The position numbers were made by a program, and so were the translations under genes. A stretch of 64,000 bases of DNA from Candidatus Binataceae bacterium. GTDB taxonomy: Bacteria; Desulfobacterota; Binatia; Binatales; Binataceae. Below the pieces are notes generated by a model. That model saw only the letters and a program-made list of their open reading frames with translations. It had not been told where the DNA came from and did not search any database. Below are positions 4,011-58,576 of this stretch, in pieces (the stretch's first letter is position 1; every line of letters begins with the position of its first letter). The stretch is taken from NCBI GenBank assembly GCA_963798375.1, contig CAWCTG010000032.1, positions 72,232 through 136,231 on the forward strand, in the 5' to 3' direction.

Positions 4011-4140
4011 GCGGGCGCGATCAGGCGCGCTCGGTCATTGTGACATTCACGCCGGGCTCGGGATCGATCCGACCAGCCCGCACGCGGTGAGGCTGACGGG
4101 CGCCGGCAAGTAGCCGGCTTGTCTCATCCAGATCACGGAA

Positions 4141-4682: not shown

Positions 4683-4683
4683 A
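4516..4683 (+). CDS. Conserved 55-codon upstream ORF in the leader. Its TGA overlaps the ATG of the NHL gene (TGATG). The copy-1 homolog is at 406-546.
   Basis: ORF MNRLHSHEHGQVLALAAASIEALIGSLAIVPSTGSRNSVGRAP... is conserved in both leader copies (MNRRRSRERGQVLALATASIDALMGSLAIV...). Copy 1 has a GGAGGG SD. The ORF could still be non-coding conserved leader. Confidence 0.3.
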   Translation: MNRLHSHEHGQVLALAAASIEALIGSLAIVPSTGSRNSVGRAPGAAATAAFRGES

Positions 4684-39183: not shown

Positions 39184-39196
39184 GAATCGAAATGCG

Positions 39197-42337: not shown

Positions 42338-43395
42338 TTGCCGACGGCGGGCGCCCGAAATGGAGACGGCAATATGGAGGGGGAACGCAGCTCGCGAAAG
42401 TTTTGGGCAGGTCTTTTGGTGGCGCTGGTCGCGTTTGGAATCGCCTCCCTGGTTTCATCGCCCCCCGCAATCGGCATGGAAGGCACCCTGCTTTCCCAAG
42501 CCACAGGATCGGGGACCCGGCTACCGCCGGGCTATGTCCATAATGACACCTGCACCAGTTGCCATGATGTATCGGTCAAGTCCTTCCGCAAGACAATGAT
42601 GGGCCATCTTATGATGGGCCAGCCGCGCGACGAGGAGGAAGGCCTCGCGTGCCAGGCCTGTCATGGTCCCGGCCGCGAGCATCTACGCCATCCGAGCAAG
42701 CCGTCGCCGGGATTTCTGAGTTTTCGCGAGACCACCTTCACCGACATCAAGATTGAGAACGACCGGTGCCTCGCATGCCATCAAAACGGCGAGCGCGGGT
42801 TCTGGCGAGCCAGCGCCCACGCCGAGCGCGGCATTCGATGCGTTGATTGCCACGCCGTGATGTGTCCGGTGACGGCGAGCGCGCTGCCGCAGGCGCAACT
42901 CAAGAAGTCACCGCTTGGCACTGAATTCATCAACCCGTTCGTCGTGACGCGGCCCGAAACGCAGGTCTGCCTGCGCTGCCATCTCGACAAAAAGATGGAA
43001 ATCAATTTGCCGTCGCACATGCCGCTGCGCGAGGGGTTGATGACGTGCACCGACTGCCACAACCCGCACGGCGGACCGTATCAGAAGCAATTGCGGGCGG
43101 CGATGGTCAATGAGGTCTGCTACCGCTGTCATGCCGAAAAGCGCGGGCCGTTCCTCTGGATGCACGCGCCGGTGGCGATGAACTGCCTCAATTGCCATAT
43201 CCCGCACGGCAGCGTCAACCAGCACATGCTGGTGATCAACATGCCGGTGCTCTGCCAGCGCTGCCACATCGGCACCCGTCATCCGAGTGAGCCACAGAGG
43301 GGGGGTCAATTTTCGTGATCAACCAGCAATGCGCCAATTGCCATTCGCAGATACACGGCTCGAGCTCGCCGGGCGGGAGATATTTCACGCGCTGA
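42338..43395 (+). CDS. Periplasmic decaheme c-type cytochrome, MtrA/MtoA/PioA family. The reading frame is broken at the G7 run 43299-43305, which places the tenth CXXCH (CANCHSQIHGS) in the +1 frame.
   Basis: Nine CXXCH motifs in ORF 42338-43318 (CTSCH, CQACH, CLACH, CVDCH, CLRCH, CTDCH, CYRCH, CLNCH, CQRCH). The next frame reads INQQCANCHSQIHGSSSPGGRYFTR*, a typical MtrA-family C-terminus. N-terminal signal/anchor present. Confidence 0.8.
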
Positions 43396-43466: not shown

Positions 43467-45722
43467 ATGAACCTGAAGCGGTTGTTAGCCGGATGTGGAA
43501 CGATGGCGCTCGTGTTGTCGATGCTTTCGCCGGCGCTGGCACAGGTCGATTTCGCGCAATTCACAGCGCAGGGTTCGGTCGAGGCCGGCGCCATTCCCCA
43601 GCCTGTCCCTTATACCAATGTCGCGGAGTATCAGCAGTACCGCGATCTGGCGCAGCAGTTCATCGTTCCGCAACTGCAGTTGATCCTGGGCGACAAGGCG
43701 GAGAACTACTACGTCCAGTTCGACGCCATCAACGTCGCGCAAAAGAACCAGATGTATTCGCTGCGCTTCGGCGAGTACGGTCTGCTCGATGTTCAGGCAA
43801 AATTCTTCGAGATTCCACACAACTTCAGCAACGGCATCGCGAGCACGCCGTACAACCAGGAAGGCGGCAACTTCACTCTATCCTCGAAGCCCACTGGTAC
43901 CGGCCCCGCGCTCGATTCCTGGCTGACAGCGAACGCCAAAACGTTCGACATGAGCCTGCTCGAAGGTGTCGCGGACATCGACGTGCGCTATACGCCGACG
44001 CCGTCGCTGACCTTCAGTGCGAACATGGATTACCAGAACCCCACCGGCCAACAGCCATTCGGCGGCTCCTTTCTGTTTGGCACCAGCCCGGGTACTTACA
44101 AAGTGAACGAACTGTTCCTGCCAATCCAGTACTACACCTATAACTTCGGCACCGGCATCGAATACGCGAAAAACGGATGGATGGTGGGTTTCCAGTACCA
44201 GGGGTCCTTCTTCGTCGACGACTACAGCACCCTGACCTGGGACAACCCCCTCAATACCAGCGGAGTAGGCAGCAAATGCGTTGATTCCACCGTTTTCACT
44301 TCCACCTCGCTCACCGGCCCCTGCCAGGGACGGGCAGCCATGTACCCGAACAACCAGGCTCACAACTTCATCGTGAACGGAACGGGTCAGCTTCCATTCA
44401 ACACACACGTGATGGGGAGCCTCGAGTACGGATTCTGGCTCCAGAACGCTCCCTTCATCCCGCTTACGGCCAACAGCAAGTTGCAGCAGTCATTAAGTTC
44501 GGTAGGAGCGCCTAATAGCCTCGGCGGCGACGTGCAGCCTTTCTTTGCCAACTTCACGATCGATAGCAATCCAATCGAACCGCTGGATCTAAAGGCGACC
44601 TATTCCTATTTCGATTACGACAACCTGACGCCGGCGATCACCTTCACAGGTGTTAAGTCGCTGAATGACGTAGCGGACGCGCAGACGCCTTTCACCGCTT
44701 ATCCCTTTGCATTCTCGGAGCAGGACGTCAGCCTCGAGCCAACCTACCGCCTGACTGATACTCTCGCCACACACTTTATGTTCAAGTGGCAGACCAACCA
44801 CAACGGCGGGCTGGAGGTGCTACAGCAGGATCAAACCAGCTACGGACCCGCGCTCGATTGGAACCCATACCCGTGGCTGACTTTCCGGGCGGACTACCAG
44901 CACGCGCACCGCGACTCGCCGGGATACAACAACAACCGCGCCAGCCTGGTCCAGGTGCTTGGCGGGACCCCGGGAGAGATCGAGGAGCTTCAGAGCCTCT
45001 GGCGGTTCGACGAGGCCACGCTCGATGTGAACCAGACCTCGCTCTATGCCTCCGCGCAGCCGATCGAACAACTCACGCTGTTCGCCGCCTTCAATTACGA
45101 CGACTATAACTACCCCAACAGCGACTTCGGCCTGGAGCACACTTCGGACTATTCGCCGTCGGTGGGGGCCAGTTGGGAACCGATGCCAGGCATGCACCTT
45201 TTTAGCGACTACTCCTGGCAGGCGTACGATTGGAACCTATGGTCACAGGACGAGACTACTATTCCGGCGGCGAAGCCTCCGCCTGGAAAAACGAACGCTT
45301 GGGAGGCCAGGGGCCGCAACCAGGGCAACAATATCGATTTCGGCACGGACATCGCGATACCGCCGAATCGCATTCTGCCGCGGCCGTCGCACCTGAAACT
45401 CCAGTACACCTACACGGTTGGCAACAACAGCACCCACCAATCGGGGGCTACCTCGGCCGGGGCGTCAGGGGAGGCGATCGACTATCCCGATGTCGGCAGC
45501 CAGTTCCAAGAGTTGATAATTCAGTACCAGTACGATTTGCTTGACAACCTGGCTATCAACGTCGGCTACTACTTCACTCACTCCAACGAAAACAATTTCA
45601 TGGTGGACAACATGAGGAACTACATGCCGAATGCAAGCGCAAATTCGACATTTCTCGGCAACACCGACATAGCTCCTTACAACGTCAATGTCGCATTCAT
45701 AACCCTGAAGTACAAATTTTAG
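43467..45722 (+). CDS. Large outer-membrane beta-barrel protein (~752 aa), MtrB/MtoB/PioB-like porin partner of the decaheme cytochrome
   Basis: Signal peptide MNLKRLLAGCGTMALVLSMLSPALAQ. Y/N/G/S/T/Q-rich with alternating amphipathic strands. Ends in an aromatic C-terminus ...AFITLKYKF. Sits immediately downstream of the MtrA-like gene. The listed ORF start 43287 is an artefactual upstream extension. Confidence 0.7.
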   Translation: MNLKRLLAGCGTMALVLSMLSPALAQVDFAQFTAQGSVEAGAIPQPVPYTNVAEYQQYRDLAQQFIVPQLQLILGDKAENYYVQFDAINVAQKNQMYSLRFGEYGLLDVQAKFFEIPHNFSNGIASTPYNQEGGNFTLSSKPTGTGPALDSWLTANAKTFDMSLLEGVADIDVRYTPTPSLTFSANMDYQNPTGQQPFGGSFLFGTSPGTYKVNELFLPIQYYTYNFGTGIEYAKNGWMVGFQYQGSFFVDDYSTLTWDNPLNTSGVGSKCVDSTVFTSTSLTGPCQGRAAMYPNNQAHNFIVNGTGQLPFNTHVMGSLEYGFWLQNAPFIPLTANSKLQQSLSSVGAPNSLGGDVQPFFANFTIDSNPIEPLDLKATYSYFDYDNLTPAITFTGVKSLNDVADAQTPFTAYPFAFSEQDVSLEPTYRLTDTLATHFMFKWQTNHNGGLEVLQQDQTSYGPALDWNPYPWLTFRADYQHAHRDSPGYNNNRASLVQVLGGTPGEIEELQSLWRFDEATLDVNQTSLYASAQPIEQLTLFAAFNYDDYNYPNSDFGLEHTSDYSPSVGASWEPMPGMHLFSDYSWQAYDWNLWSQDETTIPAAKPPPGKTNAWEARGRNQGNNIDFGTDIAIPPNRILPRPSHLKLQYTYTVGNNSTHQSGATSAGASGEAIDYPDVGSQFQELIIQYQYDLLDNLAINVGYYFTHSNENNFMVDNMRNYMPNASANSTFLGNTDIAPYNVNVAFITLKYKF

Positions 45723-45845: not shown

Positions 45846-46259
45846 ATGTCGAAGAGTTTGAGAACGAAGATTCGATCGAGACTCTGGATTTGGACCGCGT
45901 CGGCCATACCAGCAGTTGCAGTGCTGGCGTTGATCTCAACCTGCGCCCGCGCAGCCGATCTCACGGCCGCGGCCGGCAGTTACTCGGATACCTGCGCTAA
46001 GTGTCACGGCCCGGCCGGCAAGGGCGATGGCCCCAAAGCGGCCGAACTGAAAGACAAGGACGGCAAGCCGGTCACCATCGGAGATTTATCCGATTGTGCC
46101 AAGATGAGCAAGATAACCGATGACGACATGTTCAAGGAGCTGAAAGAGGGCGGCGCGTCAGTAGGCAAGAGCAAGTTCATGACTCCCTATGGCGATGCGA
46201 TGGAGGACGACGAGATCAAAGGGCTGGTCGCTTATGTCAGAACCTTGTGCAAGAAGTAG
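45846..46259 (+). CDS. Monoheme class-I cytochrome c, secreted (MtoD/Cyc1-like candidate periplasmic shuttle), paralog 1
   Basis: Signal peptide; single CAKCH; conserved C-terminus LVAYVRTLCKK. Confidence 0.8.
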   Translation: MSKSLRTKIRSRLWIWTASAIPAVAVLALISTCARAADLTAAAGSYSDTCAKCHGPAGKGDGPKAAELKDKDGKPVTIGDLSDCAKMSKITDDDMFKELKEGGASVGKSKFMTPYGDAMEDDEIKGLVAYVRTLCKK

Positions 46260-46423: not shown

Positions 46424-46825
46424 ATGAGAACTAAGATTCGATCGATACTGTGGGTTTGGACCGTGTCGGCCATACCGGCGGTTGCAGCGCTGGCGTTGAT
46501 CTCAACCGGCGCCCGCGCAGCCGATCTCACGGCCGCGGCCAGCAGTTACTCGGATACGTGCGCTAAGTGTCACGGCCCGCTCGGCAAGGGCGACGGCCCC
46601 AAAGCTGCCGAACTGAAAGACAAGGACGGCAAGGTGGTCCCCAGCGGAGATTTGTCCGATTGCGCCAAGATGGCCAAGGTTACTGACGACGACATGTTCA
46701 AGGAGCTCAAGGAAGGCGGCCAGGCGGTCGGCAAGAGCAAGTTCATGACTCCCTATGGCGACGCGATGGAGGACGACGAGATCAAGGCGATGGTTGCGTA
46801 CGTCAGAACCTTGTGCAAGAAGTAG
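46424..46825 (+). CDS. Monoheme class-I cytochrome c, paralog 2 (tandem duplicate of 45846-46259)
   Basis: MRTKIRSILWVWTVSAIPAVAALALIS...CAKCHGP...MVAYVRTLCKK; ~85% aa identity to paralog 1. Confidence 0.8.
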   Translation: MRTKIRSILWVWTVSAIPAVAALALISTGARAADLTAAASSYSDTCAKCHGPLGKGDGPKAAELKDKDGKVVPSGDLSDCAKMAKVTDDDMFKELKEGGQAVGKSKFMTPYGDAMEDDEIKAMVAYVRTLCKK

Positions 46826-47113: not shown

Positions 47114-48655
47114 ATGCAAACGAGCGGAGATGAGCCGGGCGCACCGGGATCGGAGCGCCCGGCACGGCAAAATGGCGCCGAGGCCGAACGCCAATTACCA
47201 AGCCTGGCTCGCAACCGGCTGAGCATCGCCGGCCTGATCATCGCCGTCATCGTCTTGGCGGACATGGTTTCCCTGGCTGGCATGACGCTGCTAGGGGTGC
47301 AGTTGAACCCCTACGTCGGCATTTTTGCCTACCTGATCGGTCCGGCCGTCATGATATTCGGCCTGTTGCTCATTCCGGCCGGGATGGCACTCGAACGGCG
47401 ACGGCGCCGGAAGTTTCTGCCGGGTGAGCTGCCGCCCTTTCCCAAGCTCGATCTCAACGAGCCTTCGGTTCGGCGCGGCTTTCTCGGCGCGGTAGGCTTT
47501 TCGATGTTTTTTGTGGTTCTGAGCCTGGCGGCAAGCTACCAAGGCTACCAGTTCACGGACTCGGTGATGTTCTGCGGCCAGACCTGTCACGTCCCGATGA
47601 AGCCGGAATTCGACGCCTACCAGGATTCGCCGCACGCGCGGGTCGCATGCGCGGACTGCCACGTAGGACCCGGCGCCACTTGGTTTGTTCGCTCCAAGCT
47701 GTCGGGCGCCTATCAGGTCTATGCGGTAATGTTCAACAAGTACCCCAGACCGATTGAAACCCCCATCAAGGATTTGCGCCCGGTTCAGGCAGCCTGCGAG
47801 CAATGCCATTGGCCGCAGAAGTTCTACGGCGCGCAACTCAAGGTCTTCGCGCATTATGCCTACGACGAGAAGAACACGCCCACGCGCATCCAGATGCTGA
47901 TCAAGACCGGAGGAGGAGCTGCCGAGTTCGGCCGCGCCACCGGAATCCACTGGCACATGAACATCGCCAACCAAGTATGGTTCGCGGCTACTGACACGCA
48001 GTCCCAGGTGATTCCATGGGTGAAGGTAAGGACCCCCGACGGAAGGACCACGGAATACACTGCCAAGGGCACTTCGCTGACCCCAAAGCAGATTGCGGCG
48101 ATTCCCATCCAGACGATGGACTGTGTGAGCTGCCATGCCCGCCCGTCCCATAAGTTTCTTCCGCCCGATCAGGCGGTCGATGCGTCGTTCGAGGCGGGCC
48201 AGCTCGACCCTACGCTTCCCTTCTTGAAGAGGCAGGCGGTCAAGGCTCTGCTCAAGCGCTATGACACGTCGGAACACGCGACCGAGGGAATCGCCACCGC
48301 CCTCGATACCTTTTACCAGGATCGCTATCCCCAGATTTATGCCGCCAAGGCGCAGCAAATCGGGGCCGCCATTGCCGCCGTGCAGCACATCTACACAACC
48401 AACATCTTTTCGTTTATGCGGGTTGATTGGCGCACGCATCCCGATAACATCGGCCACCTTTATTACGCGGGATGCTTCCGCTGTCACGACGGGCAGCACG
48501 TCAGCGCCGATGGCCGGGTGATACCCCAGCAATGCGAAACCTGTCACACGGTCCTTGCATCTCCCAACAGTGTCGCCGAGTTCAAGCATCCAGTTGATCT
48601 GAACGATGTAGGCGGCGCGACCTGCAGCACCTGTCATACCGGAGGCGTCCTGTAA
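47114..48655 (+). CDS. Membrane-anchored heptaheme c-type cytochrome, NapC/NirT-related (ImcH-like candidate quinol/quinone oxidoreductase)
   Basis: Two N-terminal TM helices; seven CXXCH (CGQTCH, CADCH, CEQCH, CVSCH, CFRCH, CETCH, CSTCH); 513 aa. Confidence 0.7.
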   Translation: MQTSGDEPGAPGSERPARQNGAEAERQLPSLARNRLSIAGLIIAVIVLADMVSLAGMTLLGVQLNPYVGIFAYLIGPAVMIFGLLLIPAGMALERRRRRKFLPGELPPFPKLDLNEPSVRRGFLGAVGFSMFFVVLSLAASYQGYQFTDSVMFCGQTCHVPMKPEFDAYQDSPHARVACADCHVGPGATWFVRSKLSGAYQVYAVMFNKYPRPIETPIKDLRPVQAACEQCHWPQKFYGAQLKVFAHYAYDEKNTPTRIQMLIKTGGGAAEFGRATGIHWHMNIANQVWFAATDTQSQVIPWVKVRTPDGRTTEYTAKGTSLTPKQIAAIPIQTMDCVSCHARPSHKFLPPDQAVDASFEAGQLDPTLPFLKRQAVKALLKRYDTSEHATEGIATALDTFYQDRYPQIYAAKAQQIGAAIAAVQHIYTTNIFSFMRVDWRTHPDNIGHLYYAGCFRCHDGQHVSADGRVIPQQCETCHTVLASPNSVAEFKHPVDLNDVGGATCSTCHTGGVL

Positions 48656-48679: not shown

Positions 48680-50056
48680 GTGAGACAAATGACGCACGGA
48701 TCAGGGCGTATGGTTAGCTCAGGGCGGACGGTTAGCGGCCTCGGGCGCGCCGCGTGCGCTATTGCGGCAATGCTGCTGTACGCAGTTGCAACGGCGCAGG
48801 CCGCTCCGACCAAGGCCGCTCCGCCGAAGGCCGCTAAGACGACGAGAGCCGGTAAGACGACGAAAGCCGCTCCGGCGAAGCCGCTCACCGATAGCGATTG
48901 CCTGTCCTGTCATAATCTTAAGGCCAGCGCCAAGTTACAGGCGCGGCCGGTTAGCGTGTACGTCAATGCGGAGATATACCAGCCCTCGGTCCACGCGAAG
49001 CTGGGTTGTGTCTCCTGCCATTCTGACATCCATGCCTTTCCTCATCCCGATCCGGTCAAGCCGGTTTCCTGCGCCGGCTGCCACGCGAGTGAGACTTCGG
49101 CCTATGCGGGCAGCGTTCACGCTATCGCCGAGCGGGAGAAGAAGAGCCGCTTTCCGGCCTGTCTCAATTGTCACGGAAACCCCCACGGCCTCCGCGCCAA
49201 GACTGACCCGAAGTCGCGAGTTTACCCGCTCAACCTGCCGGGCACCTGCGGCACCTGCCACGGTAACCCCGAGCTTGCCAAGAAATATGGCTTGCCGGAC
49301 GTGTACCCGCTCTACATGGATTCGATTCACGGCTTCGCGCTGAGTGCCGACGGGCTCCTGGTGGCTGCCACCTGCAGCAAGTGCCATGGCGCGCACGATA
49401 TCCTCAGCCGAAAGGACCCGAAGAGCCGGATCTTCTATAAAAATGTGCCTGCCACCTGTGGCGCGTGCCATGCCGGCGTCGAAGTCGAGTACCTTGCCGG
49501 AGCGCACGGCGCGGCGATGATCGCCGGGCGCGCGAATGCTCCGGTATGCACGAATTGCCATACCTCGCATCAGATTACCCAGGTGGACGTCGCTAGCTGG
49601 CAAATCAAAACCGTCGCCACCTGCGGTAACTGTCACAAGACCAGGCTTAGGAGCTACGGCGATACTTTCCACGGCGAGGTGACCGAGCGCGGCTTCGTCT
49701 CCGCGGCGCAATGCTGGAGTTGCCATGGCGCTCACGAAGTTCTTAAGGCCTCCAATCCCAAGTCCAAGGTCGCGCCGGCCAACCTTCTCACCACCTGCGG
49801 CAAGTGCCACGTCGGCGCAACCGCTAGCTTTGTCAAGTACGATCCGCATCCCAATGCGCACGAGCGGCGGCGCAACCCGGCCCTGTATTACGCGGCTCTA
49901 TGCATGGGACTGCTGCGTTTGATTGACCCATTCGGACTGATGGCTGTTGGCGTGGTGCTCGCAATTACGCTCGCTCACGGAATCGGCCAGATCGTGCGGT
50001 ATAACACGGGGACGGACCACTCGGACTCTGACCGCCATTCGGGAGATGAAAAATGA
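48680..50056 (+). CDS. Undecaheme (11 x CXXCH) c-type cytochrome with Sec signal and C-terminal hydrophobic helix
   Basis: CLSCH, CVSCH, CAGCH, CLNCH, CGTCH, CSKCH, CGACH, CTNCH, CGNCH, CWSCH, CGKCH counted. Repeated ...DPKSR... spacing. C-terminal TM LYYAALCMGLLRLIDPFGLMAVGVVLAITLAH. Confidence 0.8.
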   Translation: MRQMTHGSGRMVSSGRTVSGLGRAACAIAAMLLYAVATAQAAPTKAAPPKAAKTTRAGKTTKAAPAKPLTDSDCLSCHNLKASAKLQARPVSVYVNAEIYQPSVHAKLGCVSCHSDIHAFPHPDPVKPVSCAGCHASETSAYAGSVHAIAEREKKSRFPACLNCHGNPHGLRAKTDPKSRVYPLNLPGTCGTCHGNPELAKKYGLPDVYPLYMDSIHGFALSADGLLVAATCSKCHGAHDILSRKDPKSRIFYKNVPATCGACHAGVEVEYLAGAHGAAMIAGRANAPVCTNCHTSHQITQVDVASWQIKTVATCGNCHKTRLRSYGDTFHGEVTERGFVSAAQCWSCHGAHEVLKASNPKSKVAPANLLTTCGKCHVGATASFVKYDPHPNAHERRRNPALYYAALCMGLLRLIDPFGLMAVGVVLAITLAHGIGQIVRYNTGTDHSDSDRHSGDEK

Positions 50057-50145
50057 CCTACGTCGTAGTTGATCCCGTAACGCGCATCGAGGGCCATCTA
50101 CGGATCGAAGCCGAGCTTGACGGCGGCAAGGTGAGGATTCTGTGA
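50053..50145 (+). pseudogene. 30-codon remnant of a [NiFe]-hydrogenase large subunit (N-terminal L1 motif fused to a short C-terminal tail), start/stop-coupled between the 11-heme cytochrome and cytochrome b
   Basis: MTYVVVDPVTRIEGHLRIEAELDGGKVRIL*. VVDPVTRIEGHLRIE matches the universally conserved N-terminus of NiFe hydrogenase large subunits (cf. E. coli HyaB LVVDPITRIEGHMRCEV). Its ATG overlaps the upstream TGA (ATGA) and its TGA overlaps the GTG of the cytochrome b gene. Confidence 0.65.
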
Positions 50146-50843
50146 GTGCGCCACCGCGGCTTGTGCCCGAGCCACCTGGCACTGGCCTTGTTTATGTCTG
50201 GCAACTGCCAGTGCGTTTGTCGCACTGGTTGATCGTCATATCGATAGCTGTGCTAGCGGTTACCGGCTACTTCATCGGCAATCCGTTAATAACAACCGGC
50301 GGACCTGCAAGGGATCGCATCGTCGCAGCCACCATGCGCAGCATCCATCTCTACGCCGCGTGGGTGTTTGGTGTGTCGGTGGTCGTGCGGGTTTACTGGA
50401 TGTTCGCCGGCAGTTACTACGCGCGTTGGGACCAGTTCATTCCGGTCTCGCGCGACCGGCTCAATAGCGTCTGGCAGGCGATGAGGTTTTATAGCTTCCA
50501 GCGCCGCGGCCCACAGCTTTATCCGGGTCATAGCGGCCTTGCCGCGCTGGCTTATACGGGCATCTTCATGATCTACTTTATGGAGATCGTCACCGGCCTG
50601 GCCCTGTACTTCATCTATGCTCCGGCGAATTCGGTCTTTCAGGGTTTTCGCTTTTTAGTCCCAATCTACTCTCGCTTTCTCCACCATATCGGGATGTGGA
50701 TCTTGTTGATGTTCGTGATTCAGCACGTGTACTCGACGATTCTTTTTTCGGTCGAGGAGCGCAGTGGAATCATCGACTCGATGTTCACAGGCTACAAGCG
50801 CATAAGCCCGGAAGCCGAGGAGGAGGCGCATCGCGATGCCTGA
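50142..50843 (+). CDS. Dihaem b-type cytochrome of the Ni/Fe-hydrogenase (HyaC/HydC/FdnI-like) family, membrane quinone-interacting subunit
   Basis: Four TM helices with conserved His (RLSHWLI..., IHLYAAW, HHIGMWILLMFVIQHVYS); family-typical R-x-x-H-W at TM1. Confidence 0.8.
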   Translation: MSAPPRLVPEPPGTGLVYVWQLPVRLSHWLIVISIAVLAVTGYFIGNPLITTGGPARDRIVAATMRSIHLYAAWVFGVSVVVRVYWMFAGSYYARWDQFIPVSRDRLNSVWQAMRFYSFQRRGPQLYPGHSGLAALAYTGIFMIYFMEIVTGLALYFIYAPANSVFQGFRFLVPIYSRFLHHIGMWILLMFVIQHVYSTILFSVEERSGIIDSMFTGYKRISPEAEEEAHRDA

Positions 50844-50891
50844 CGAGTTACTCGAACTCATGAACGCCGCTATCACACAAGGAGAATCGCA

Positions 50892-51656
50892 ATGATATTC
50901 GGTGTAGTCATCTTAATCGCCGCAATCTTCATTCTGAGCGGGGTCAAAGTCCTTAACGAATATCAGCGCGCCGTAGTCTTCCGCCTGGGGCGGCTCATGC
51001 GGTACCGCGGCCCCGGCATAATTTACGTGGTCCCCCTGGTGGAGCGGATGGTCCGGATCGATCTGCGTACCGTCGTGCTCGACATCCCGCCGCAGGACGT
51101 AATCACCAAGGACAACGTGACCGTCAAGGTGAGCGCGGTGCTCTACTTCCGGGTGATCGATCCGTCGCGCGCGGTCACCGAGGTGGCAAATTACCTGTTC
51201 GCCACCATGCAGCTCGCGCAGACCACCCTGCGCTCCGTTGGCGGACAGACCGAACTCGACGAACTTCTGAGCCAGCGCGACAAAGTCAACGCGCGCATCC
51301 AGGCGATCGTCGATGCCCAAACCGAGCCGTGGGGAATCAAGGTCATGCTCGTCGAGCTGAAGAACATTGATCTGCCGCAGGACATGCAGCGCGCGATCGC
51401 CGCCCAGGCCGAGGCCGAGCGCGAACGGCGCGCCAAGGTGATCGCGGCCGAGGGCGAATTTCAGGCGGCGCAGCGCCTGGCCGAGGCGGCGGAAATCATG
51501 GGCAAAAGCCCGATCACGCTCCAGCTTCGCTACCTGCAGACGCTTGCCGAGATCGCGACCGAGCATAATTCGACCACCGTGTTTCCCCTCCCGATCGATC
51601 TGCTCGAGCCCTTTCGCAAGCTGGCAGGCGGCGGCGACGCCGACAAGCCGAAGTAA
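50892..51656 (+). CDS. SPFH/band-7 (stomatin/prohibitin-like) membrane protein
   Basis: N-terminal TM; SPFH core [18 protein letters not shown]...; C-terminal coiled coil [22 protein letters not shown]. Confidence 0.85.
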
Positions 51657-51954
51657 GGGGAGGTCATCGCGGCGCCGTGGACAGATGGCGCCGGCAGTGG
51701 TCGGATCGCTGAGCTGATTTCGACGACGGCCCTGGGCACGCCTGATTGTGGTTGACAAAAGCTTGGAATAAATGTTGCTGATGCTTTAAAGTAAGCGGAT
51801 GAAGGGAGGCTAATGCGTTGGGAAAAACGGAACTGAGGATGCTATCGTCGCACGATGTTCCCAACCATTGTGTCTCAAACGAATACACCTGTGTAGCCTT
51901 TCGTCATGATGTTTGGTAGCGAAGCGAAACGCCTTAGACAAAAGAAGGAGCAGA

Positions 51955-52368
51955 ATGGTCATGTCAGAAAATTCACCGGCGAAGATTCGATCGAAGGGCT
52001 GGAGCTGGACGCCCTTGGCGGCGGGAGTAGCGATGATGCTGGCGCCGGCATTGATCCCAACCGTCGTACGTGCCGCCGAAGTCGATCTGAAGGCCGCGGC
52101 CAGTAATTATTCGGATTCGTGCGTGGACTGCCATGGTGAGTCGGGCAAAGGCGACGGTAAAAAGGCGGCCGACCTGAAGGTCAAGCCCGCCGACTATACC
52201 AATTGCGCAGAGATGACGAAGTTGAGCGACGATTATCTCTTCAACGTCATCAAAAACGGCGGCAAGTCGGTGCACAAGAGCGAGGCCATGGCCGACTTCG
52301 GCAAGGCCTACGACGACGACGAGATTCACGGGCTTGTCGCCTACGTCCGCACGTTCTGCAAAAAGTGA
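51955..52368 (+). CDS. Monoheme class-I cytochrome c, third and more divergent paralog
   Basis: Signal peptide; CVDCHGESGKGDG; C-terminus LVAYVRTFCKK. Confidence 0.75.
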   Translation: MVMSENSPAKIRSKGWSWTPLAAGVAMMLAPALIPTVVRAAEVDLKAAASNYSDSCVDCHGESGKGDGKKAADLKVKPADYTNCAEMTKLSDDYLFNVIKNGGKSVHKSEAMADFGKAYDDDEIHGLVAYVRTFCKK

Positions 52369-52917
52369 GTGCGGCTAGCCGTGCCCGACGGTAATCGCGC
52401 ACAATTTGCGGTCTCGGAAGCCGGCGAAGTTATCGAGAGCGAACCGCGGCGGAAGTTCCTGGCGCGTCTGTTCTGGGGCGCGATGGCCATTGTCAGCGCC
52501 GCCATCGCGGCGCCCGTCATTTCCTATCTGATTATCCCGCTGTTGCGGCCGGGTGAGTCCAACGATTGGGTAAAGATGGGAAACATCGCCGACCTTCCGC
52601 TCAACCTTCCCCAGCGGCTCGAGGTCGGCCGGCGCGTGGTCGAGGGATGGGAAACGGACGATTCGCAGGTGACGGCCTGGGTGGTGCGGATGCCGGACAA
52701 AATCTACGTTTTCGATCCGCATTGCACGCACTTGGGATGCGCCTACCGATGGGTCGAGCAGGAAAAGCAGTTCTTCTGCCCATGCCATGCCGGCGTATTC
52801 AGCCTAACCGGGCAGGTGGTCAGCGGCCCTCCCCCACGTCCGCTGGACGTTTACGCGCACGAGGTCCGCGAGGGCGCCCTTTATGTGGTCCCGACTCCAA
52901 CTAAGCAAGTGGTTTGA
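52369..52917 (+). CDS. Rieske [2Fe-2S] iron-sulfur protein with twin-arginine signal
   Basis: RRKFLARL Tat motif; Rieske boxes CTHLGC and CPCHAGVF; GTG start directly after the upstream stop. Confidence 0.85.
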   Translation: MRLAVPDGNRAQFAVSEAGEVIESEPRRKFLARLFWGAMAIVSAAIAAPVISYLIIPLLRPGESNDWVKMGNIADLPLNLPQRLEVGRRVVEGWETDDSQVTAWVVRMPDKIYVFDPHCTHLGCAYRWVEQEKQFFCPCHAGVFSLTGQVVSGPPPRPLDVYAHEVREGALYVVPTPTKQVV

Positions 52918-54619
52918 CGAGCGCCTCGGCACGCGGGCGATCCGCGTCGCGCTCTTCGATCGCAACATTCCGAAAAGCAGCCCGCTGGTCGAGTGGATCT
53001 ACACGCTCGGCAGCGTGCTGCTGTTCTTTTTCATCCTTCAAGCAGTGACCGGCATGATGCTGGCGATGAACTATGTGGCCAGCCCCGATCACGCCTTCGA
53101 CGCCGCGCGTTACATCTCGCTGCGCGCTCCCATGGGCCAGTTCATCCGTGGGCTTCATTCGTGGGGCGCAACCGCGATGGTGGTGGTGATCGGCGCGCAC
53201 ATGCTGACCACCTTTCTCTCCGGCAGCTACAAGTATCCGCGCGAATCGACCTGGATTACCGGCGTCGTCCTGTTCCTGATCGTGATGTTGTTCGGATTCA
53301 CCGGATATCTGCTGCCCTGGAACCAGAAGTCGTACTGGGCGACCGTGGTCGGCACCAACATCGCGGGCGCGACTCCCTACATCGGGCAGTACATCGTGCG
53401 CTTCTTCCGCGGTGGCAGCGAGGTCGGCCCGCAAACGTTGACCAGATTCTACGCCCTGCACGTGCTGATGCTGCCGGCGGCGCTGATCGTTTTCGTCTCG
53501 GTGCATCTTTTCATGGTCGTGCGCCAGGGCATCTCGGCGCCTCCCAAGCGGCATCCCGAATACGGCCGCCACGGTATCAACGCCCAGCTCGGCATCGACC
53601 CCGGGCTTGGTGTCGGCACCCAGCTCAGCGTCGACGACCAGCGCAGCCGGGCGGCCGACGAATATCATCACGAGAAAGAGGCCGGCGAGTCCTTCTATCC
53701 GTTTTATCTGTCCAAAGACGCTGTCGCCGTGCTGCTGGCGCTTTCGGTGCTGGTGATTTTGGTCTTGAAGTATCCGGCCGAGATCGGCGAGATCGCCGAC
53801 CCCGCCAGCACCAGCTACAATCCGCGCCCGGACTGGTACTTCCTGTTCCTGTTCCAGGCGCTCAAGTATTTTCCCGGCAGCATGGAATCGGTCGCGGCAG
53901 TCATGCTGCCGGGGCTTGCGTTGCTGGTCCTCGTCACAGTGCCCTTCTTCGATCGGCGGATGCGCCAGCATCCGCTGGACCGCCCGATCGCAACCGGCTT
54001 TGCGCTCTCCACGCTGGTCGGCGTGATCGCGTTGACCGTGATCGGCGCGCGATCGCCGCTGCTCAACCCATATGTGCCGGAGCTGCCGACCGTCGCCGAG
54101 GGTCACCGGCTCTTTCACACGCTCAATTGCGCATACTGCCACGCCGTCAATGGCCGCGGGAGCAGGATTGGGCCCGATCTGATGCTGGATCCCCTCAAGC
54201 ACGACAAGGCTTGGATAGTCCTCCATCTCGAGCGGCCCGGCGAAGTCTTTCGGCCCGGCGCCCGCACCGCAATGACCGGATTGTTGCCGGAGGAAAGCGC
54301 GGACCTGTTCGACTACATCAATGAGCTGCAGGGCGGCGGCCCCTATAGCGACAAGGCGTCCCGGCTGTTCTACCGAAATTGCGGCAAGTGCCACATGGTG
54401 GCAGGCCACGGCGGCGCCAAGGCTCCCGATCTGAGCGGAATCGGGCTGGTGCGGTCGGTTTCGTTCATCCACCGCTACATCGAGGATCCGAAGGCCCTCT
54501 ACAGCCAGACCAAGATGCCGCCGTTCTTGCAGCCGCAGGGCAAGCTGACCCACCCCGAAATCGAGGACATCGCGCGCTTTCTCGCGCATCAGCGCACACC
54601 GGCGCCACCTAAAAACTGA
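52883..54619 (+). CDS. Cytochrome b (b6 plus subunit-IV-like, fused) with a C-terminal dihaem cytochrome c domain: the cytochrome b/c subunit of a Rieske/cyt b complex
   Basis: Cytochrome b6 N-terminus LSKWFDERLG; haem-ligating His in TM helices; PEWY-like region PDWYFLFLFQALK; two C-terminal CXXCH (CAYCH, CGKCH). Confidence 0.85.
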   Translation: MWSRLQLSKWFDERLGTRAIRVALFDRNIPKSSPLVEWIYTLGSVLLFFFILQAVTGMMLAMNYVASPDHAFDAARYISLRAPMGQFIRGLHSWGATAMVVVIGAHMLTTFLSGSYKYPRESTWITGVVLFLIVMLFGFTGYLLPWNQKSYWATVVGTNIAGATPYIGQYIVRFFRGGSEVGPQTLTRFYALHVLMLPAALIVFVSVHLFMVVRQGISAPPKRHPEYGRHGINAQLGIDPGLGVGTQLSVDDQRSRAADEYHHEKEAGESFYPFYLSKDAVAVLLALSVLVILVLKYPAEIGEIADPASTSYNPRPDWYFLFLFQALKYFPGSMESVAAVMLPGLALLVLVTVPFFDRRMRQHPLDRPIATGFALSTLVGVIALTVIGARSPLLNPYVPELPTVAEGHRLFHTLNCAYCHAVNGRGSRIGPDLMLDPLKHDKAWIVLHLERPGEVFRPGARTAMTGLLPEESADLFDYINELQGGGPYSDKASRLFYRNCGKCHMVAGHGGAKAPDLSGIGLVRSVSFIHRYIEDPKALYSQTKMPPFLQPQGKLTHPEIEDIARFLAHQRTPAPPKN

Positions 54620-56267
54620 TCCGCGCGCCCCCCGCCGATCCCCTAAAAGCTGTTGAAATTGGAGTGGCGGTCATCCTCGCCCGATCGGAAGATCGGGTGG
54701 AGTTTAACGAGGAGGACGCCCTGAGGAAGGGTGCCAAGAGGTGAGGGAGTGGAAAGACAGCCGTTGGCGAAGGACAACTGTGGTTGCGATATGCGGGTTT
54801 GTACGCGAGGCGAAGTTCGGCCGATCGCTGGCAACGGAATCCGCGCCTGTCAGCAAATGTGGATAGCCGAATCTGCATTGCGTCAGCGCGAGAGGCGAAC
54901 CGTGAAGCGACAAGCGGAGGATGCCGCTAATGAGAATTCACGAGAACGAGAACCGGAATGTCCGAACTAAAGACAAATGGAAGAATGCAAGCAGGATTCA
55001 AGAACGCTCAACTTGAAGCAGACTGTCGAGAACGTCTTCGACAGAAGCTGACAGTTGCGTCAATGAGGCGGCATGCCTTCCTGGTAGTACGAACACCATA
55101 ATGATTCCCAGTTTCTCGAATTTGCCGAGGTTGGACAAACTCAGGGCACTTGCTATCGAACTTAATTCCGCACTGCTCGAAGAATTCGACTCTTACAATG
55201 ACGTTCCTCTAGACGAGCGGTCGCTTCTCAAAAGGGAAGGCTGAGAACTTAGCGCGATGGGATACGGGCCGATTTGGATCATACTGGGCGCGGGCGTCTG
55301 CCCGATCCGATGAAACATGTTCAAAGCGATAGCGAGCCTCGCTCGCGCTTGTGGGCCGTTTTCGTGGCTGGCACTCTTAAGAATTCTTTGGCATTTGGCG
55401 GCGGAAAGCCGATAGCAAGTAGTGGGTTCGAATTTTGTGACTAACCGGGGGACTGTTTATGTCGATTTTTCGGACCGCTCTCGGTATGCGCCACGGCTAT
55501 GGGATCAGGGAGTGGCGCAGCGCCTCCTTGAGCAGCCACCATGGAGCTCTTAGCGGAGAGTCCGACGCCCACGGGGATGCTGGCATGCGAGAATAATAAG
55601 AGTCACGCAATCAGTTTCACCATGTCGGAAAGTCGAAAAAAGTGCCAAACGATATCGCGCTCGATGGCCCAGGCCCGCAGGGCCCGCCGGGTCCAGCCTC
55701 GACAACTATCGTCCCAACCGCCTCGCAGGTCTGCGATTGCTATTGTACCGCACCCCCGTGCGATTACAATTCCCCGAACGCAGAAGTTGTTTCGCAATGC
55801 CCGGATGGTGAAGTCGTCGTCGGCGGCACCTACACCTTCGACTTTGACGAGTATTATAATAAAGCCTTTGATTTCTGGGCAGTTCGGCTTGCGGGCTTCC
55901 CGATCTCACGCGGTGACCGATGGGTTATGTCGGATAGCGCTTGAGGTCGATTCACCGTCCACTGAATCAACACGGCTATACCAACGGTTTTCCGAGCTGA
56001 TGCAGGGCAGCGCTACTGTATTGCCTACCGTCGAAGCCACCCCATCGGTGTCATACGACGGGGATTCGGCGTCGTCACCGAAGAAGAAGTAGCGACACGG
56101 AAAGGAGAGCCTGAGGGAAGAAAAGTCTTTTTGGCATACCGTCACGTCCGCCAGGTCGAACTGAGCCCGCAGCACTGCGACTTATCGTCATCGAGCGCGA
56201 GCGTACTCGCGGCCTTGAGATTTGCGACAGACGCGACGAATAGCGTCCGCTTCGATCACTCCGATGA

Positions 56268-56651
56268 CTACTTCGAACGCTTTTCTGCCGAAAAGGAACC
56301 AATGGCTTTTTCTGCTTTTTGCAGACGGTCTAGCTCCTCACGCTTATGTCTATCCTGATCGAGAATTAAAAAGATCGCCTGCTTAAGCATCTCAAAGGCG
56401 TTGAGGCATTGAGTCTCCTCAAGTTCGTGGATACCAATCGATAAAATCGCATATACCTTTTTGTTGCGAACAAGAAACTCCGGCAGGTGGTGCTTAAGGA
56501 ACTCAATCTTCTCTTCCATGCGCTTGCCAACGAAGTCGGCGTCCTTCCAGCCTTCTGGCGCCTTGAATTCTTCGAACCGCCGTGTGATCAGCCTTTCGAA
56601 TACACGCCGCAGATAGACGAAAGAACCGACGCTCGACGCCGTGGGCGGCAA
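56268..56651 (-). CDS. Hypothetical protein in low-GC island (K/E-rich, 127 aa)
   Basis: Longest ORF in the AT-richer island; no recognisable motif. Confidence 0.3.
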   Translation of the reverse strand: MPPTASSVGSFVYLRRVFERLITRRFEEFKAPEGWKDADFVGKRMEEKIEFLKHHLPEFLVRNKKVYAILSIGIHELEETQCLNAFEMLKQAIFLILDQDRHKREELDRLQKAEKAIGSFSAEKRSK

Positions 56652-57457
56652 GCCGATTGCTCGATGGAGTTCTACGCCGTCGACTGGGTTAAGAACCTGT
56701 CGATAGTTGCGGCTTTCGTCGTTGGCTATATCTGAAGCGAAGGGTACTGCCCGATTTTTTAAATCAGCGGCTTCTTGAGCTTCAACACAAAAAGGATTGT
56801 GTGCTTCGCGTTACGGGCACAGGCAATTTCGAAACCGAGAGCCGGAATATTTTCGACCGCATATTTGAGGTTCCCGATCTCTATATCGCCAGCAGTGCGG
56901 CTAAGCGTGGGAGCCTTATGGAAGTGCGGGCAGTACCCATCTACGACATGAGGGTGATTGAACATATAGAATATGCCACGCCGCTGTCGCCCAGTTTGGC
57001 AGAGTCGAAATCATACTCGGCATACAGGGGTGCACCGAACAGAAAGTCCTGAATTGAAGATAGCAACGGGAATTTAGGCCCAGAATTGGATTCGGAAATT
57101 TCCGTAGAGTCCATTCTTTCGTATCATGTTGCAACCCGATTTCGACCCCGCGCCAACGACAGTGCGCAGCCAGCTTGGAAGGAAATCGCGCCGTGGGCCG
57201 CCCCTTGCGCGCGGCGGCGAGAAGGCTTGTCGAAAGGTCGTGCCAAACGACTGACAAACCGTGCAGAAATAGACCGAGCAGCATCGACCTGATTTCGACA
57301 AAACCTTTATTTAAGGCGCGTTTTGTTCTTTCACGGATCGAATGCTCGAACTGCTAAGAATGAGAGCCTGTTCCACGCGCGCGCGAACGCGTATAGTCAG
57401 AGGGACCGATCCAGCCACTGTGCATTCTCAAAACTCTGACACCTAGGTGAAGCATCC

Positions 57458-58576
57458 ATGATGCCCTCGATCGACTTCGCGAAAGCTCCCTTTCTGGTTA
57501 TCTGGGAAACGACTCAGGCCTGCGACCTCGCCTGCAGCCATTGCCGCGCCTCGGCTCAACCGCTGCGCCATTGCGACGAACTGACCACCGCGCAAGGCTT
57601 CGCGCTGCTTGCCGAGACCGCTGCGATGGGCACTCCGGTGTTTATCTTAAGCGGTGGCGACCCGCTCAAACGTCCCGACCTGTTGGACCTCGTGCGCGAG
57701 GGCAAGCGGCTCGGTCTGCGCATGGGAACCATTCCGGCGGCGACTCCAGCACTTACTCCGACCGTGGTCCGCCAGTTGAAGGAGGCGGGCCTGGACCAGA
57801 TGGCGCTGAGCCTCGATTATCCGCGCGCTGACCTTCACGACGGTTTCCGCGGAGTACCAGGGGCCTTCAACAAGACAATGGCGGCGGTCGAATGGGCGCA
57901 CCAATGTGGTCTGCCGCTACAGATCAACACGACCCTGTGGGCTGGTTCGGCGCCGTTTCTGTCCGAGATGGCTGAATTGGTCGAACGTCTTCGAGCAGTC
58001 TTCTGGGAAGTGTTCTTCCTGGTCCCGATGGGTCGCGGCGAGGTCCTGGACGGAGTCGCGGCGAACCAGTGTGAGGAACTCTTCGCGACCTTATACGCGG
58101 TTCAGAAAAAGTCGCACTTCGTCGTGAAGGTGACCGAGGCGCCCCACTACCGGCGCTATGTCGCGCAGCACGAGGCGGGAAGCAGCGGTGCGCAGTACCA
58201 GGGCCACCCCGGCTCGGTGGCGATGCCCGACATGCTTCGGCGATCGGAAGGCCCGGGGCACACCGTTGGGCTTGCGCCTCACGGCGTCAACGCTGGCAAG
58301 GGCTTTGTCTTCGTGTCCCACCTGGGCGAGGTCTATCCGAGCGGATTCCTGCCGGTTTCTGCCGGAAACGTGCGGTCGCAAAGCTTGGCCGAGATTTATC
58401 GTGACTCCGAGCTCTTCCGCACGCTGCGTGACCCCGCCGCCCTGCGCGGCAGGTGCGGGCGGTGCGAGTATCGCAGCTTCTGCGGCGGCTCTCGCTCGCG
58501 CGCCTATGCGTTGACCGGCGACTTTCTCGCGACTGACCCGTGGTGCAACTATCAACCTGCCCGGTCTGCCGCTTAG
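57458..58576 (+). CDS. Radical SAM / SPASM-domain enzyme (AhbD/NirJ/PqqE-like)
   Basis: CxxxCxxC cluster TTQACDLACSHCRA near the N-terminus; C-terminal SPASM Cys motif CGRCEYRSFCGG. Confidence 0.85.
   Translation: MMPSIDFAKAPFLVIWETTQACDLACSHCRASAQPLRHCDELTTAQGFALLAETAAMGTPVFILSGGDPLKRPDLLDLVREGKRLGLRMGTIPAATPALTPTVVRQLKEAGLDQMALSLDYPRADLHDGFRGVPGAFNKTMAAVEWAHQCGLPLQINTTLWAGSAPFLSEMAELVERLRAVFWEVFFLVPMGRGEVLDGVAANQCEELFATLYAVQKKSHFVVKVTEAPHYRRYVAQHEAGSSGAQYQGHPGSVAMPDMLRRSEGPGHTVGLAPHGVNAGKGFVFVSHLGEVYPSGFLPVSAGNVRSQSLAEIYRDSELFRTLRDPAALRGRCGRCEYRSFCGGSRSRAYALTGDFLATDPWCNYQPARSAA

Follow-up and report, generated by a model that had tools for sequence, protein, structure and literature searches.

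A Rieske/cytochrome b complex with a fused dihaem cytochrome c and its recurrent linkage to outer-membrane electron conduits in Candidatus Binataceae

In a 64,000-nucleotide stretch of DNA from a Candidatus Binataceae bacterium (assembly GCA_963798375.1, contig CAWCTG010000032.1, positions 72,232 to 136,231; this whole stretch is hereafter called the window), the genes of a Rieske/cytochrome b complex lie downstream of genes for an outer-membrane porin and a decahaem cytochrome. Does this complex serve as an ordinary respiratory complex, or does it connect the quinone pool with the outside of the cell? Of all steps in microbial iron oxidation and metal reduction, the transfer of electrons between an outer-membrane conduit and the quinone pool is understood least. 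The evidence described below makes it fairly probable that the complex is the inner-membrane terminus of a porin–decahaem conduit of the MtoAB/PioAB type, linking the menaquinone pool to extracellular iron or manganese. To judge from the annotation of the cytochrome b matches, the host belongs to the phylum Binatota: the best database homologue (98% identity) and many others are assigned to Candidatus Binatus or Binataceae.

The cytochrome b–dihaem c fusion and its partner proteins

Four genes were found on the forward strand at positions 50892 to 54619, in agreement with a preliminary description made from the letters of the window. They and the parts of the last one are as follows.

50892–51656, + strand: stomatin-type SPFH protein, 254 amino acids (aa) (PF01145, Band 7, 132 bits)
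51744–51957, + strand: conserved non-coding block upstream of c3 (alignment with the related locus L001)
51958–52368, + strand: monohaem class-I cytochrome c, referred to as c3; open reading frame (ORF) 51913–52368, probable ATG at 51958 (PF13442, PF00034)
52369–52917, + strand: Rieske [2Fe-2S] subunit (PF00355, NCBIfam, alignment of 13 orthologues)
52883–54619, + strand: cytochrome b–dihaem cytochrome c fusion, 578 aa (Pfam, PDB sequence search, AlphaFold2, Foldseek)
52976–53527, + strand: b6-like half of the fusion, residues 32–215 (PF00033, 170 bits)
53795–54058, + strand: subunit-IV-like half, residues 305–392 (PF00032)
53828–53839, + strand: motif PDWY of the quinol-oxidising (Qo) site, residues 316–319 (sequence and alignment)
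54080–54340, + strand: haem c domain 1, with CAYCH at residue 416, nucleotides (nt) 54128–54142 (PF00034)
54353–54589, + strand: haem c domain 2, with CGKCH at residue 500, nt 54380–54394 (PF00034)

The fusion is genuine. Its ORF is continuous, with no stop across the 578 aa; the 120 best of roughly 2,900 homologues are 430–590 aa long, almost all of them 530–590 aa, and nearly all have the full domain set; and more than 100 full-length homologues carry the same b–dihaem c fusion. The continuous ORF and the full-length homologues rule out two genes joined over a missed stop, an option that the preliminary description had raised. Its central proposal, that a b6-like and a subunit-IV-like half are fused to two class-I c domains which replace a cytochrome c1 or f, is borne out by Pfam (PF00033/PF00032/PF00034), by the structural models and by the homologues. 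Both PF00034 stretches lie within the final 180 residues, no gene for cytochrome c1 or cytochrome f was found within the 64-kb window, and the two class-I c domains stand in for c1/f.

The conserved residues given here were obtained from a 60-sequence alignment for the cytochrome b, from 13 orthologues for the Rieske protein, and from 12 orthologues together with paralogues for the monohaem cytochrome c. In the cytochrome b, the histidine pairs of the b haems (H92/H106 and H193/H208) are invariant, and the pair of helix D is spaced by 14 residues as in b6 (H193-x14-H208). P316, W318 and Y319 of the Qo motif are also invariant, as are C416, C419, H420, C500, C503, H504 and M545 in the c domains. 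A PDB sequence search placed the N-terminal half closest to cytochrome b6 (166 bits) and residues 268–392 closest to the b6f subunit IV (43 bits). The cysteine that binds haem ci is absent: the YCLGG of b6 aligns to YTLGS, the threonine (T41) being nearly invariant in the family. This replacement rules out a true b6f type with haem ci and leaves a protein with two b haems.

The AlphaFold2 model built on the 60-sequence alignment (predicted local distance difference test (pLDDT) 86.7, predicted template-modelling score (pTM) 0.83) has seven transmembrane (TM) helices followed by the c region; since the number of helices is odd, the model places the c domains on the periplasmic side. In Foldseek, the membrane part matched the bc1 cytochrome b (TM-score 0.72–0.79). 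The C-terminal 184 aa, modelled separately (pLDDT 94.1), form two class-I c folds, for which the matches were Kuenenia Kustd1711, the actinobacterial bcc subunit QcrC, SoxX, the c domain of caa3 and mitochondrial cytochrome c; by sequence, domain 2 also resembles the cytochrome c of the Aquifex bc1 complex. The preliminary description had looked to distal ligands and a class-I fold in both c domains. This holds for both folds and, with the invariant M545, for the ligand of domain 2. In domain 1 the CXXCH is invariant, but the distal M469 is not conserved: it is shifted here and missing in the close relatives P0018 and P0025, the canonical methionine of the MP motif is present in distant homologues, and H448 is invariant.

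The Rieske protein has one TM anchor and the two cluster-binding boxes CTHLGC and CPCH, in which C119–C124 and C137–H140 are invariant in the 13 orthologues. The anchor is preceded by a twin-arginine motif, EPRRKFL (RR at nt 52447–52452), and 11 of 13 relatives share RRxF[LMI]. Moreover, tatC and tatA adjoin the complex genes in L004, a relative described below. Export of the Rieske protein by the Tat route is thus predicted from its signal, RRKFL, in line with the preliminary description. The Rieske gene overlaps the cytochrome b gene by 35 nt, and an identical 35-nt overlap is seen in the relatives L001, L007 and L173. The CPCH box continues as CPCH-A-G-V-F, with G and F at positions +2 and +4; by a published rule, these positions predict the Rieske potential, and G–F marks a low-potential protein of about 150 mV that goes with PDWY and menaquinol (PMC4122944). 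The present Rieske protein is accordingly predicted to be of low potential, about 150 mV, and to belong to a menaquinol-type complex.

The small cytochrome c3 has a signal or anchor peptide, a conserved cysteine pair and His/Met ligation, with CxxCH and the distal methionine invariant. In most loci of the family, a small cytochrome c lies directly upstream of the Rieske gene; in L005, L169 and L172, a multihaem cytochrome occupies that position instead. Two more specific identities were tried for c3 and rejected: a PDB search gave Kuenenia and c552-type cytochromes rather than MtoD, and a weak hit to cytochrome-579 carries no weight, as its 26 bits lie far below the cut-off of 280. Upstream of c3, about 110 nt (51744–51860) are nearly identical in L001 and include a perfect TTGACA at 51753–51758, which suggests that the conserved block is a separate promoter or a 5′ leader for the c3, Rieske and cytochrome b genes. 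Scans for sigma-70 promoters and for terminators stayed at chance level, and a sigma-54-like match at 51764–51779 was discarded, its spacing being broken by a 4-nt insertion in L001.

To what kind of complex do these parts belong? Cytochromes b with a C-terminal class-I cytochrome c have been described as the PDWY-cyt c and PEWY-cyt c clades (Kao & Hunte 2014, PMC4122944). The present complex shares with the former the C-terminal class-I c, the PDWY motif and a Rieske protein of low to middle potential, and it would be a member of that clade by motif and architecture rather than by placement in a tree. Members of the clade are scattered unevenly over the phyla, in many cases as an additional copy. 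The complex differs from the published description in having two c domains instead of one; Binatota were not sampled there, and no link with a conduit was noted. The complex is almost certainly a menaquinol-type Rieske/cytochrome b complex of this PDWY-cyt c kind, and it is predicted to be of the quinol:cytochrome c oxidoreductase type with proton translocation.

Three known proteins are similar in part. One is the b6c complex of Bacillus (QcrABC), in which subunit IV is fused to a cytochrome c, the histidine spacing is of the b6 type and the motif is PDWY; there, however, b6 is split and carries haem ci, and a single haem c is present, whereas here one polypeptide lacks haem ci. Another is the actinobacterial bcc complex (QcrCAB), where a dihaem cc acceptor replaces c1 (weak fold matches to 7q21_C and 7rh6_O), but as a separate subunit beside a cytochrome b of the long, eight-helix type. 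The last is Kustd1711 of Kuenenia stuttgartiensis (PDB 7ZS0), the best match to the dihaem tail (Foldseek E = 1e-5, phmmer E = 4e-6), which differs in being soluble, with a global TM-score of 0.34 and 15% identity, and of which only domain 2 aligns well by sequence.

Linkage to outer-membrane conduits

Every c-type cytochrome gene of the window falls within 42.3–54.6 kb. Besides the genes listed above, this cluster contains the following.

42338–43395, + strand: decahaem cytochrome of the MtoA/MtrA/DmsE family, referred to as mtoA (NCBIfam TIGR03508, 205 bits)
43467–45722, + strand: outer-membrane porin of the MtrB/PioB family, about 751 aa, referred to as mtoB (PF11854, 252 bits)
45846–46259, + strand: monohaem cytochrome c, paralogue of c3 (Pfam, alignment)
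46424–46825, + strand: monohaem cytochrome c, paralogue of c3 (Pfam, alignment)
47114–48655, + strand: ImcH-like inner-membrane cytochrome, 513 aa (three TM helices, NapC/NrfH-like region, seven haem motifs, of which six are CXXCH and one CX3CH)
48680–50056, + strand: 11-haem cytochrome with a C-terminal TM helix (Pfam, NCBIfam, TM prediction)
50142–50843, + strand: NiFe-hydrogenase-type dihaem cytochrome b (Pfam, NCBIfam, TM prediction)

For the porin, an earlier start at 43287 (an 811-aa ORF, 60 codons longer) was rejected as an artefact of the upstream frame; the N-termini of orthologues indicate the ATG at 43467.

Is the proximity of the conduit and the complex accidental? We compared 17 distinct loci of the family with 155 other Rieske/cytochrome b loci found among the matches listed in two scans of contig collections (genomes and metagenomes); all counts for such other loci below refer to these matches. 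The best 600 matches of each scan, mostly distant cytochromes b, were used as background and not as a census. The loci were picked by length of sequence and not by gene context, and the sample is small. When linkage was defined as a recognised outer-membrane conduit within 10 kb of the Rieske/cytochrome b genes, 10 of the 17 family loci had one (MtoAB/PioAB-like in eight, Cyc2-like in two), against 6 of the 155 others (Fisher p = 2.6e-8).

The gene order in the relatives is informative. In the sister genome L001 (cytochrome b 85% identical), the entire 13-gene cluster is collinear at 86–92% nt identity. In four other Binataceae loci (L006, L007, L173 and L174; cytochrome b 68–82% identical), there is a tight operon of five genes only, in the order mtoA, mtoB, cytochrome c, Rieske and cytochrome b, with gaps of 40–120 nt. 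The flanks of these operons are unrelated, and no other cytochrome or oxidase genes are nearby. It follows that the window and L001 carry a seven-gene insertion between mtoB and c3. By this comparison, the ancestral cassette would consist of the five genes, with c3 as its original conserved partner and the two upstream monohaem copies as paralogues. The preliminary description had reported c3 as a third monoheme cytochrome embedded in the cluster; it is present there, but its rank is that of the conserved ancestral partner.

At greater distance, MtrAB-like genes lie near the complex genes in L004 (44% identity) and L005 (41%). In L170 and L171, the corresponding upstream position is taken by a Cyc2-like fused porin–cytochrome (L170, 7647–8924), and in L010 three genes for small cytochromes c intervene between that of a Cyc2-like protein (6414–7724) and the Rieske gene. 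Each of these Cyc2-like proteins, about 430 aa long, combines a signal peptide with the motif PxFARxxxxxCxxCH; the C-terminus resembles a beta-barrel, and its last residue is F. L169 and L172 contain other large multihaem cytochromes together with unannotated proteins of 420–470 aa. As a separate observation, Cyc2-like proteins were also seen at L112, L133, L166 and L080, next to Rieske/cytochrome b–cytochrome c fusions from several phyla, which include families with three or four fused haem c motifs.

Because the linkage recurs and the five-gene operons exist, the likeliest role of the complex is that of the inner-membrane end of a route for extracellular electron transfer. We regard a functional coupling of complex and conduit as highly probable on the basis of gene order. 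The preliminary description had pointed to this linkage from the window, and the case for it is strengthened by the recurrence at 41–98% identity and by the five-gene operon in four relatives.

Several points weigh against this reading. Five of the 17 family loci have no conduit and show either the core of cytochrome c, Rieske and cytochrome b alone or molybdoenzyme or alternative complex III (ACIII)-like neighbours; the complex therefore does not need a neighbouring conduit in order to work. The sixth ligand of the first haem c, M469 or H448, is uncertain from the alignment. The conduit itself may be defective in this strain, as mtoA is frameshifted in the assembly. Finally, the role is deduced from the sequence of an uncultured organism.

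The first of these points would fit an ordinary complex III that feeds a cytochrome c oxidase in aerobic respiration, the conduit lying nearby through clustering of cytochrome genes for maturation or regulation, or through hitch-hiking. The family is widespread in aerobes, Pfam and NCBIfam assign the proteins only to generic bc/b6f families, and in the window a conserved intergenic region of 300 bp parts the c3, Rieske and cytochrome b genes from those upstream. However, the tight five-gene operons with their short gaps stand free of other cytochrome or oxidase genes, and the linkage recurs across the whole identity range with two unrelated conduit types. Moreover, no terminal oxidase genes were found in any of the loci examined. 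A survey of Binatota describes aerobic methylotrophs and alkane degraders with ACIII, without mention of a Rieske/cytochrome b complex or of extracellular electron transfer (PMC8262859); since ACIII is reported there as the complex III of the phylum, a housekeeping role of the present complex is unlikely, and we consider this explanation improbable.

The state of mtoA raises another alternative, namely that the extracellular branch is a pseudogene remnant in this strain and that only the bc complex functions. Compared with L001 and L173, mtoA has lost one nt in or beside a run of seven G (43299–43305), so that nine CXXCH remain in frame and the tenth haem motif (CANCH) lies in the +1 frame; the orthologues have ten haem motifs. 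Nearby rearrangements specific to the strain, namely a swapped b-cytochrome segment and a 2.8-kb insertion (see below), are in keeping with decay. Nevertheless, the out-of-frame tail is intact (CANCH…YFTR) and ends at 43395, the same stop as in L001 and L173, and the remaining genes are full-length with 80–96% identity to those of L001. A single-base error in a homopolymer is also a common assembly artefact. The frameshift is due to an error of assembly or to an inactivation that happened very recently, and a decaying cluster is unlikely.

Two published clusters resemble the arrangement at the level of gene content. One is the Mtr cluster with PetAB of Zixibacteria RBG-1 (Castelle et al. 2013, PMC3903129), which has MtrAB-like proteins, two monohaem and several multihaem cytochromes and a cytochrome b/Rieske pair, and which likewise lacks an extracellular MtrC-type cytochrome. 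It belongs to another phylum and is compared here by description, and neither the five-gene operon nor the exchange for Cyc2 is described there. Another is the mtoA-mtoB-mtoD-cymA set of Sideroxydans and Gallionella (PMC5566968, PMC4412085), where MtoAB is accompanied by a small monohaem cytochrome c and a quinone-active inner-membrane cytochrome; in the Cytbc variant of the KS-culture Gallionellaceae, there are two small cytochromes c and a b-type cytochrome fused to a dihaem c. Unlike in the present family, the inner-membrane partner is CymA (of the NapC type) or a b561–dihaem c fusion without a Rieske protein, and these clusters therefore have no Q cycle. The fusion architecture and the general idea of Mtr–PetAB clusters are thus already published. 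A search of open-access papers turned up neither a report of such a system in Binatota nor one of the minimal operon with its five genes, and no account of the apparent exchange between MtoAB and Cyc2 ahead of the same bc module.

The SPFH gene and other genes of the cluster

The seven-gene insert holds the two copies of cytochrome c, the ImcH-like gene, the 11-haem cytochrome, the b cytochrome and the SPFH gene. By architecture, positions 48680–50843 correspond to a CbcL/MtoC-like module split into two genes, CbcL being composed of a multihaem domain and a HydC/FdnI-like dihaem b part. The ImcH-like gene has the arrangement described for ImcH, with three N-terminal TM helices and about seven haem motifs (PMC6295460). 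Both matches are by architecture only, and the genes were set beside GSU3259 and GSU0274 by description. In L001, gene prediction divides the ImcH-like gene (4072–5560) into two, of 356 and 135 aa; either the gene is truly split there or the assembly has a frameshift.

The SPFH protein is a genuine stomatin-type member by its sequence: it scores 244 bits for stomatin, 220 bits for the stomatin PH1511 of P. horikoshii and 146 bits for E. coli QmcA, and it has a single, N-terminal TM helix (residues 2–20). Its position upstream of the bc genes is as the preliminary description had it. That description had also taken it for a scaffold of the complex. The idea of a dedicated membrane scaffold, for which prohibitin and stomatin-like proteins with mitochondrial respiratory complexes offer an analogy, gains from the fact that SPFH genes with 92% aa identity adjoin the complex in L001 and the window, and that another one follows directly downstream of a split complex in L082 as an independent case; two independent cases in about 17 family loci compare with 1–2% expected per locus, a rough estimate. 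However, these are the only such cases: none of the four minimal operons has an SPFH gene, nor has any other locus of the family, and SPFH is not enriched among Rieske/cytochrome b loci (4 of about 170). In the window it belongs to the inserted block, and it starts 48 nt past the b-type cytochrome gene, while 300 nt of non-coding sequence separate it from c3. Because of these distances, it probably belongs to the upstream transcription unit and is more likely co-transcribed with the CbcL-like b cytochrome than with the bc genes. Prokaryotic stomatins usually have NfeD or STOPP as an operon partner; no NfeD partner adjoins the present gene, whose flanks are the b-type and the monohaem cytochrome c genes. 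For the SPFH protein, the CbcL-like unit is as probable a partner as the bc complex, if not a more probable one, and a scaffold dedicated to the bc complex is improbable.

In L082 (329–4088; a metagenome-assembled genome of Elusimicrobia), the complex is encoded as a b6-like gene and a separate subunit IV–dihaem c gene, unless an assembly frameshift divides them; the SPFH gene and then a tetrahaem cytochrome follow downstream.

The cluster differs from that of L001 in two places. One is the stretch 49907–50858, the sole part of the otherwise 86–92% identical cluster that is non-homologous to L001 (6840–7896). It takes in the anchor at the C-terminus of the 11-haem cytochrome and, after it, the entire b-type cytochrome gene, whose product is a NiFe-hydrogenase-type cytochrome b in the window and an FdnI-like protein of 276 aa in L001; judging from this alignment, the difference is a cassette swap of the quinone-interacting subunit. 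Another is a 2.8-kb insertion after the cytochrome b gene (54638–57432), where L001 has 134 bp. Its guanine-cytosine content is 55–58% against about 62% around it, it has short ORFs only, and no Pfam, Rfam or tRNA match was obtained within it.

Two further features flank the cluster.

37441–40621, + strand: histidine kinase and sigma-54-dependent response regulator, ahead of the cluster and candidate members of the system only (Pfam)
57458–58576, + strand: radical SAM/SPASM protein related to the haem b synthase AhbD (TIGR04053, 457 bits)

A connection of the cluster to the NtrC-type regulator through sigma-54 promoters was tried and dropped, the matches numbering 28 against 27.7 expected. On the model for the haem b synthase AhbD, the radical SAM protein reaches 319 bits, short of the cut-off. 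A TIGR04053 gene lies a few genes downstream of the bc genes also in L001 (11951–13105), L004 (14912–16012) and L170 (13323–14435), that is, in lineages only 44% identical, and the protein may be a haem-related maturation factor, as far as its family and position indicate.

Two side observations concern secreted proteins. At L173 (3912–5281) and L174 (11940–13363), there is a paralogous secreted pair composed of CarboxypepD_reg-like and cupredoxin-like C…H…M parts (PF00127, weak). The pair also occurs beside the Rieske/cytochrome b loci L069, L080, L104 and L164, so that its occurrences include two minimal mtoAB–bc operons; no homologue was found in the window. The window encodes two large secreted proteins with NHL-repeat and Ig-like parts (2415–4010 and 4680–8471; 531 and 1263 aa), whose link to the cytochrome cluster is only a candidate one; the Uet cluster, by which Ca. 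Tenderia takes up electrons, is reported to include NHL-repeat proteins as well (PMC10734462).

Direction of electron flow and its meaning

In which direction would electrons pass? From the conserved ligands, folds and gene order, we infer a path that would run from the outer-membrane conduit through the monohaem cytochrome c, the dihaem c tail and the Rieske [2Fe-2S] cluster to the Qo site and the menaquinone pool, or the reverse, with the Q cycle coupling electron flow to the proton-motive force. In the inward version, Fe(II) or another external donor would reduce the cytochrome c, and the complex, driven backwards by the proton-motive force, would reduce menaquinone. In this genome, the seven-gene expansion would add alternative connections to the quinone pool. 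The preliminary description had placed an uphill or downhill branch point at the quinone pool; if there is any, it would rather be at the periplasmic cytochrome c.

Inward flow, that is, electron uptake, is slightly favoured over outward flow, with a confidence close to but not reaching an even chance. One pointer is that the conduits lack a surface cytochrome of the MtrC/OmcA type: no other multihaem ORFs were found in the 64-kb window, nor was such a gene found in the minimal operons. Mineral reducers normally need such a cytochrome, which counts against outward flow. Another is thermodynamic. Judged by standard potentials, cytochrome c that is kept in balance with a Q-cycle enzyme would be well suited to take up electrons from Fe(II); the output of the Q cycle, at about +100 mV or higher, would not suffice to reduce Fe(III) oxides at pH 7, and on those potentials only Mn(IV) or chelated Fe(III) would be suitable as acceptor. 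The last is comparative: relatives pair the module with Cyc2-like proteins, Cyc2 having been demonstrated in the literature only as an Fe(II) oxidase, and the analogous cluster of Zixibacteria was read as one for Fe(II) oxidation (PMC3903129).

A reversed bc complex with its own cytochrome c has a counterpart in the petI operon of Acidithiobacillus ferrooxidans (cycA1-sdrA1-petA1B1C1), which is thought to run in reverse with Fe(II) electrons. It differs in being a three-subunit bc1 complex with a separate c1, PPWY and ubiquinone, in an acidophile, and its Cyc2 is encoded in another operon together with an oxidase. That electrons pass uphill through a bc complex in neutrophilic Fe(II) oxidisers is, to our knowledge, an assumption and not a demonstrated fact.

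Some observations speak against inward flow. The PDWY motif and the low-potential Rieske signature are of the forward, menaquinol-oxidising type, whereas APWY or PPWY is found in those complexes for which a reverse mode has been proposed (PMC4122944). The statement in the preliminary description that such complexes are typical of lineages using reverse electron transport was therefore too strong: reverse operation is proposed for the APWY clade (PMC4122944), while here PDWY is combined with a G–F Rieske protein. The same features suit the opposite scheme, in which a forward Q cycle oxidises menaquinol and delivers electrons through the dihaem tail, the monohaem cytochrome c and MtoA/MtoB to Mn(IV) oxides, chelated Fe(III) or humics; the complex would then be the highest-yield member of a set of tiered quinol oxidases (Rieske/cytochrome b, ImcH-like and CbcL-like) on one shared conduit. 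ImcH homologues have been reported only from Fe(III) reducers (PMC6295460), and the cluster contains an ImcH-like gene together with the CbcL-like ones. The ancestral five-gene operon, however, has neither.

The Geobacter sulfurreducens cluster extHIJKLMNOPQS (PMC5877670) also points outward, as it joins a porin-like protein, multihaem cytochromes, the Rieske protein ExtO and the cytochrome b ExtP in a metal reducer. The b6-like half of the present fusion scores 210 bits on the ExtP model, under the cut-off of 290, and is therefore not an equivalog. Unlike here, the b, subunit IV and c parts of the ext system are separate proteins, its porin is not of the MtrB family, and its host reduces metals, with outward flow. 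Binatota are predicted to be organotrophs and methylotrophs (PMC8262859), which would also suit outward flow. Taken with the points against it given above, outward flow remains a serious contender, at somewhat less than an even chance.

In either direction, the arrangement in the relatives allows a broader proposal, which we put forward as speculative but possible: the five-gene unit would be a self-contained, horizontally mobile cassette, in which the Q-cycle enzyme is the obligatory inner-membrane partner and the outer module, MtoAB or Cyc2, is exchangeable. A compact operon that joins MtoAB or Cyc2 to a Rieske/cytochrome b complex is a defined unit of five genes, which could be transferred to a tractable host. 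If the cassette reading is true, the energetics of extracellular electron exchange would be set by a reversible bc complex and not by cytochromes of the NapC/CymA, ImcH or CbcL types. The methylotrophic and alkane-degrading Binatota would then have an unrecognised role in soil iron and manganese cycling, either in the uptake of electrons from Fe(II) to menaquinone, driven by the proton-motive force, or in the respiration of Mn(IV) or Fe(III) coupled to the Q cycle. The gene content described here suggests that Binatota, which are abundant in soil, may take part in the redox cycling of iron or manganese.

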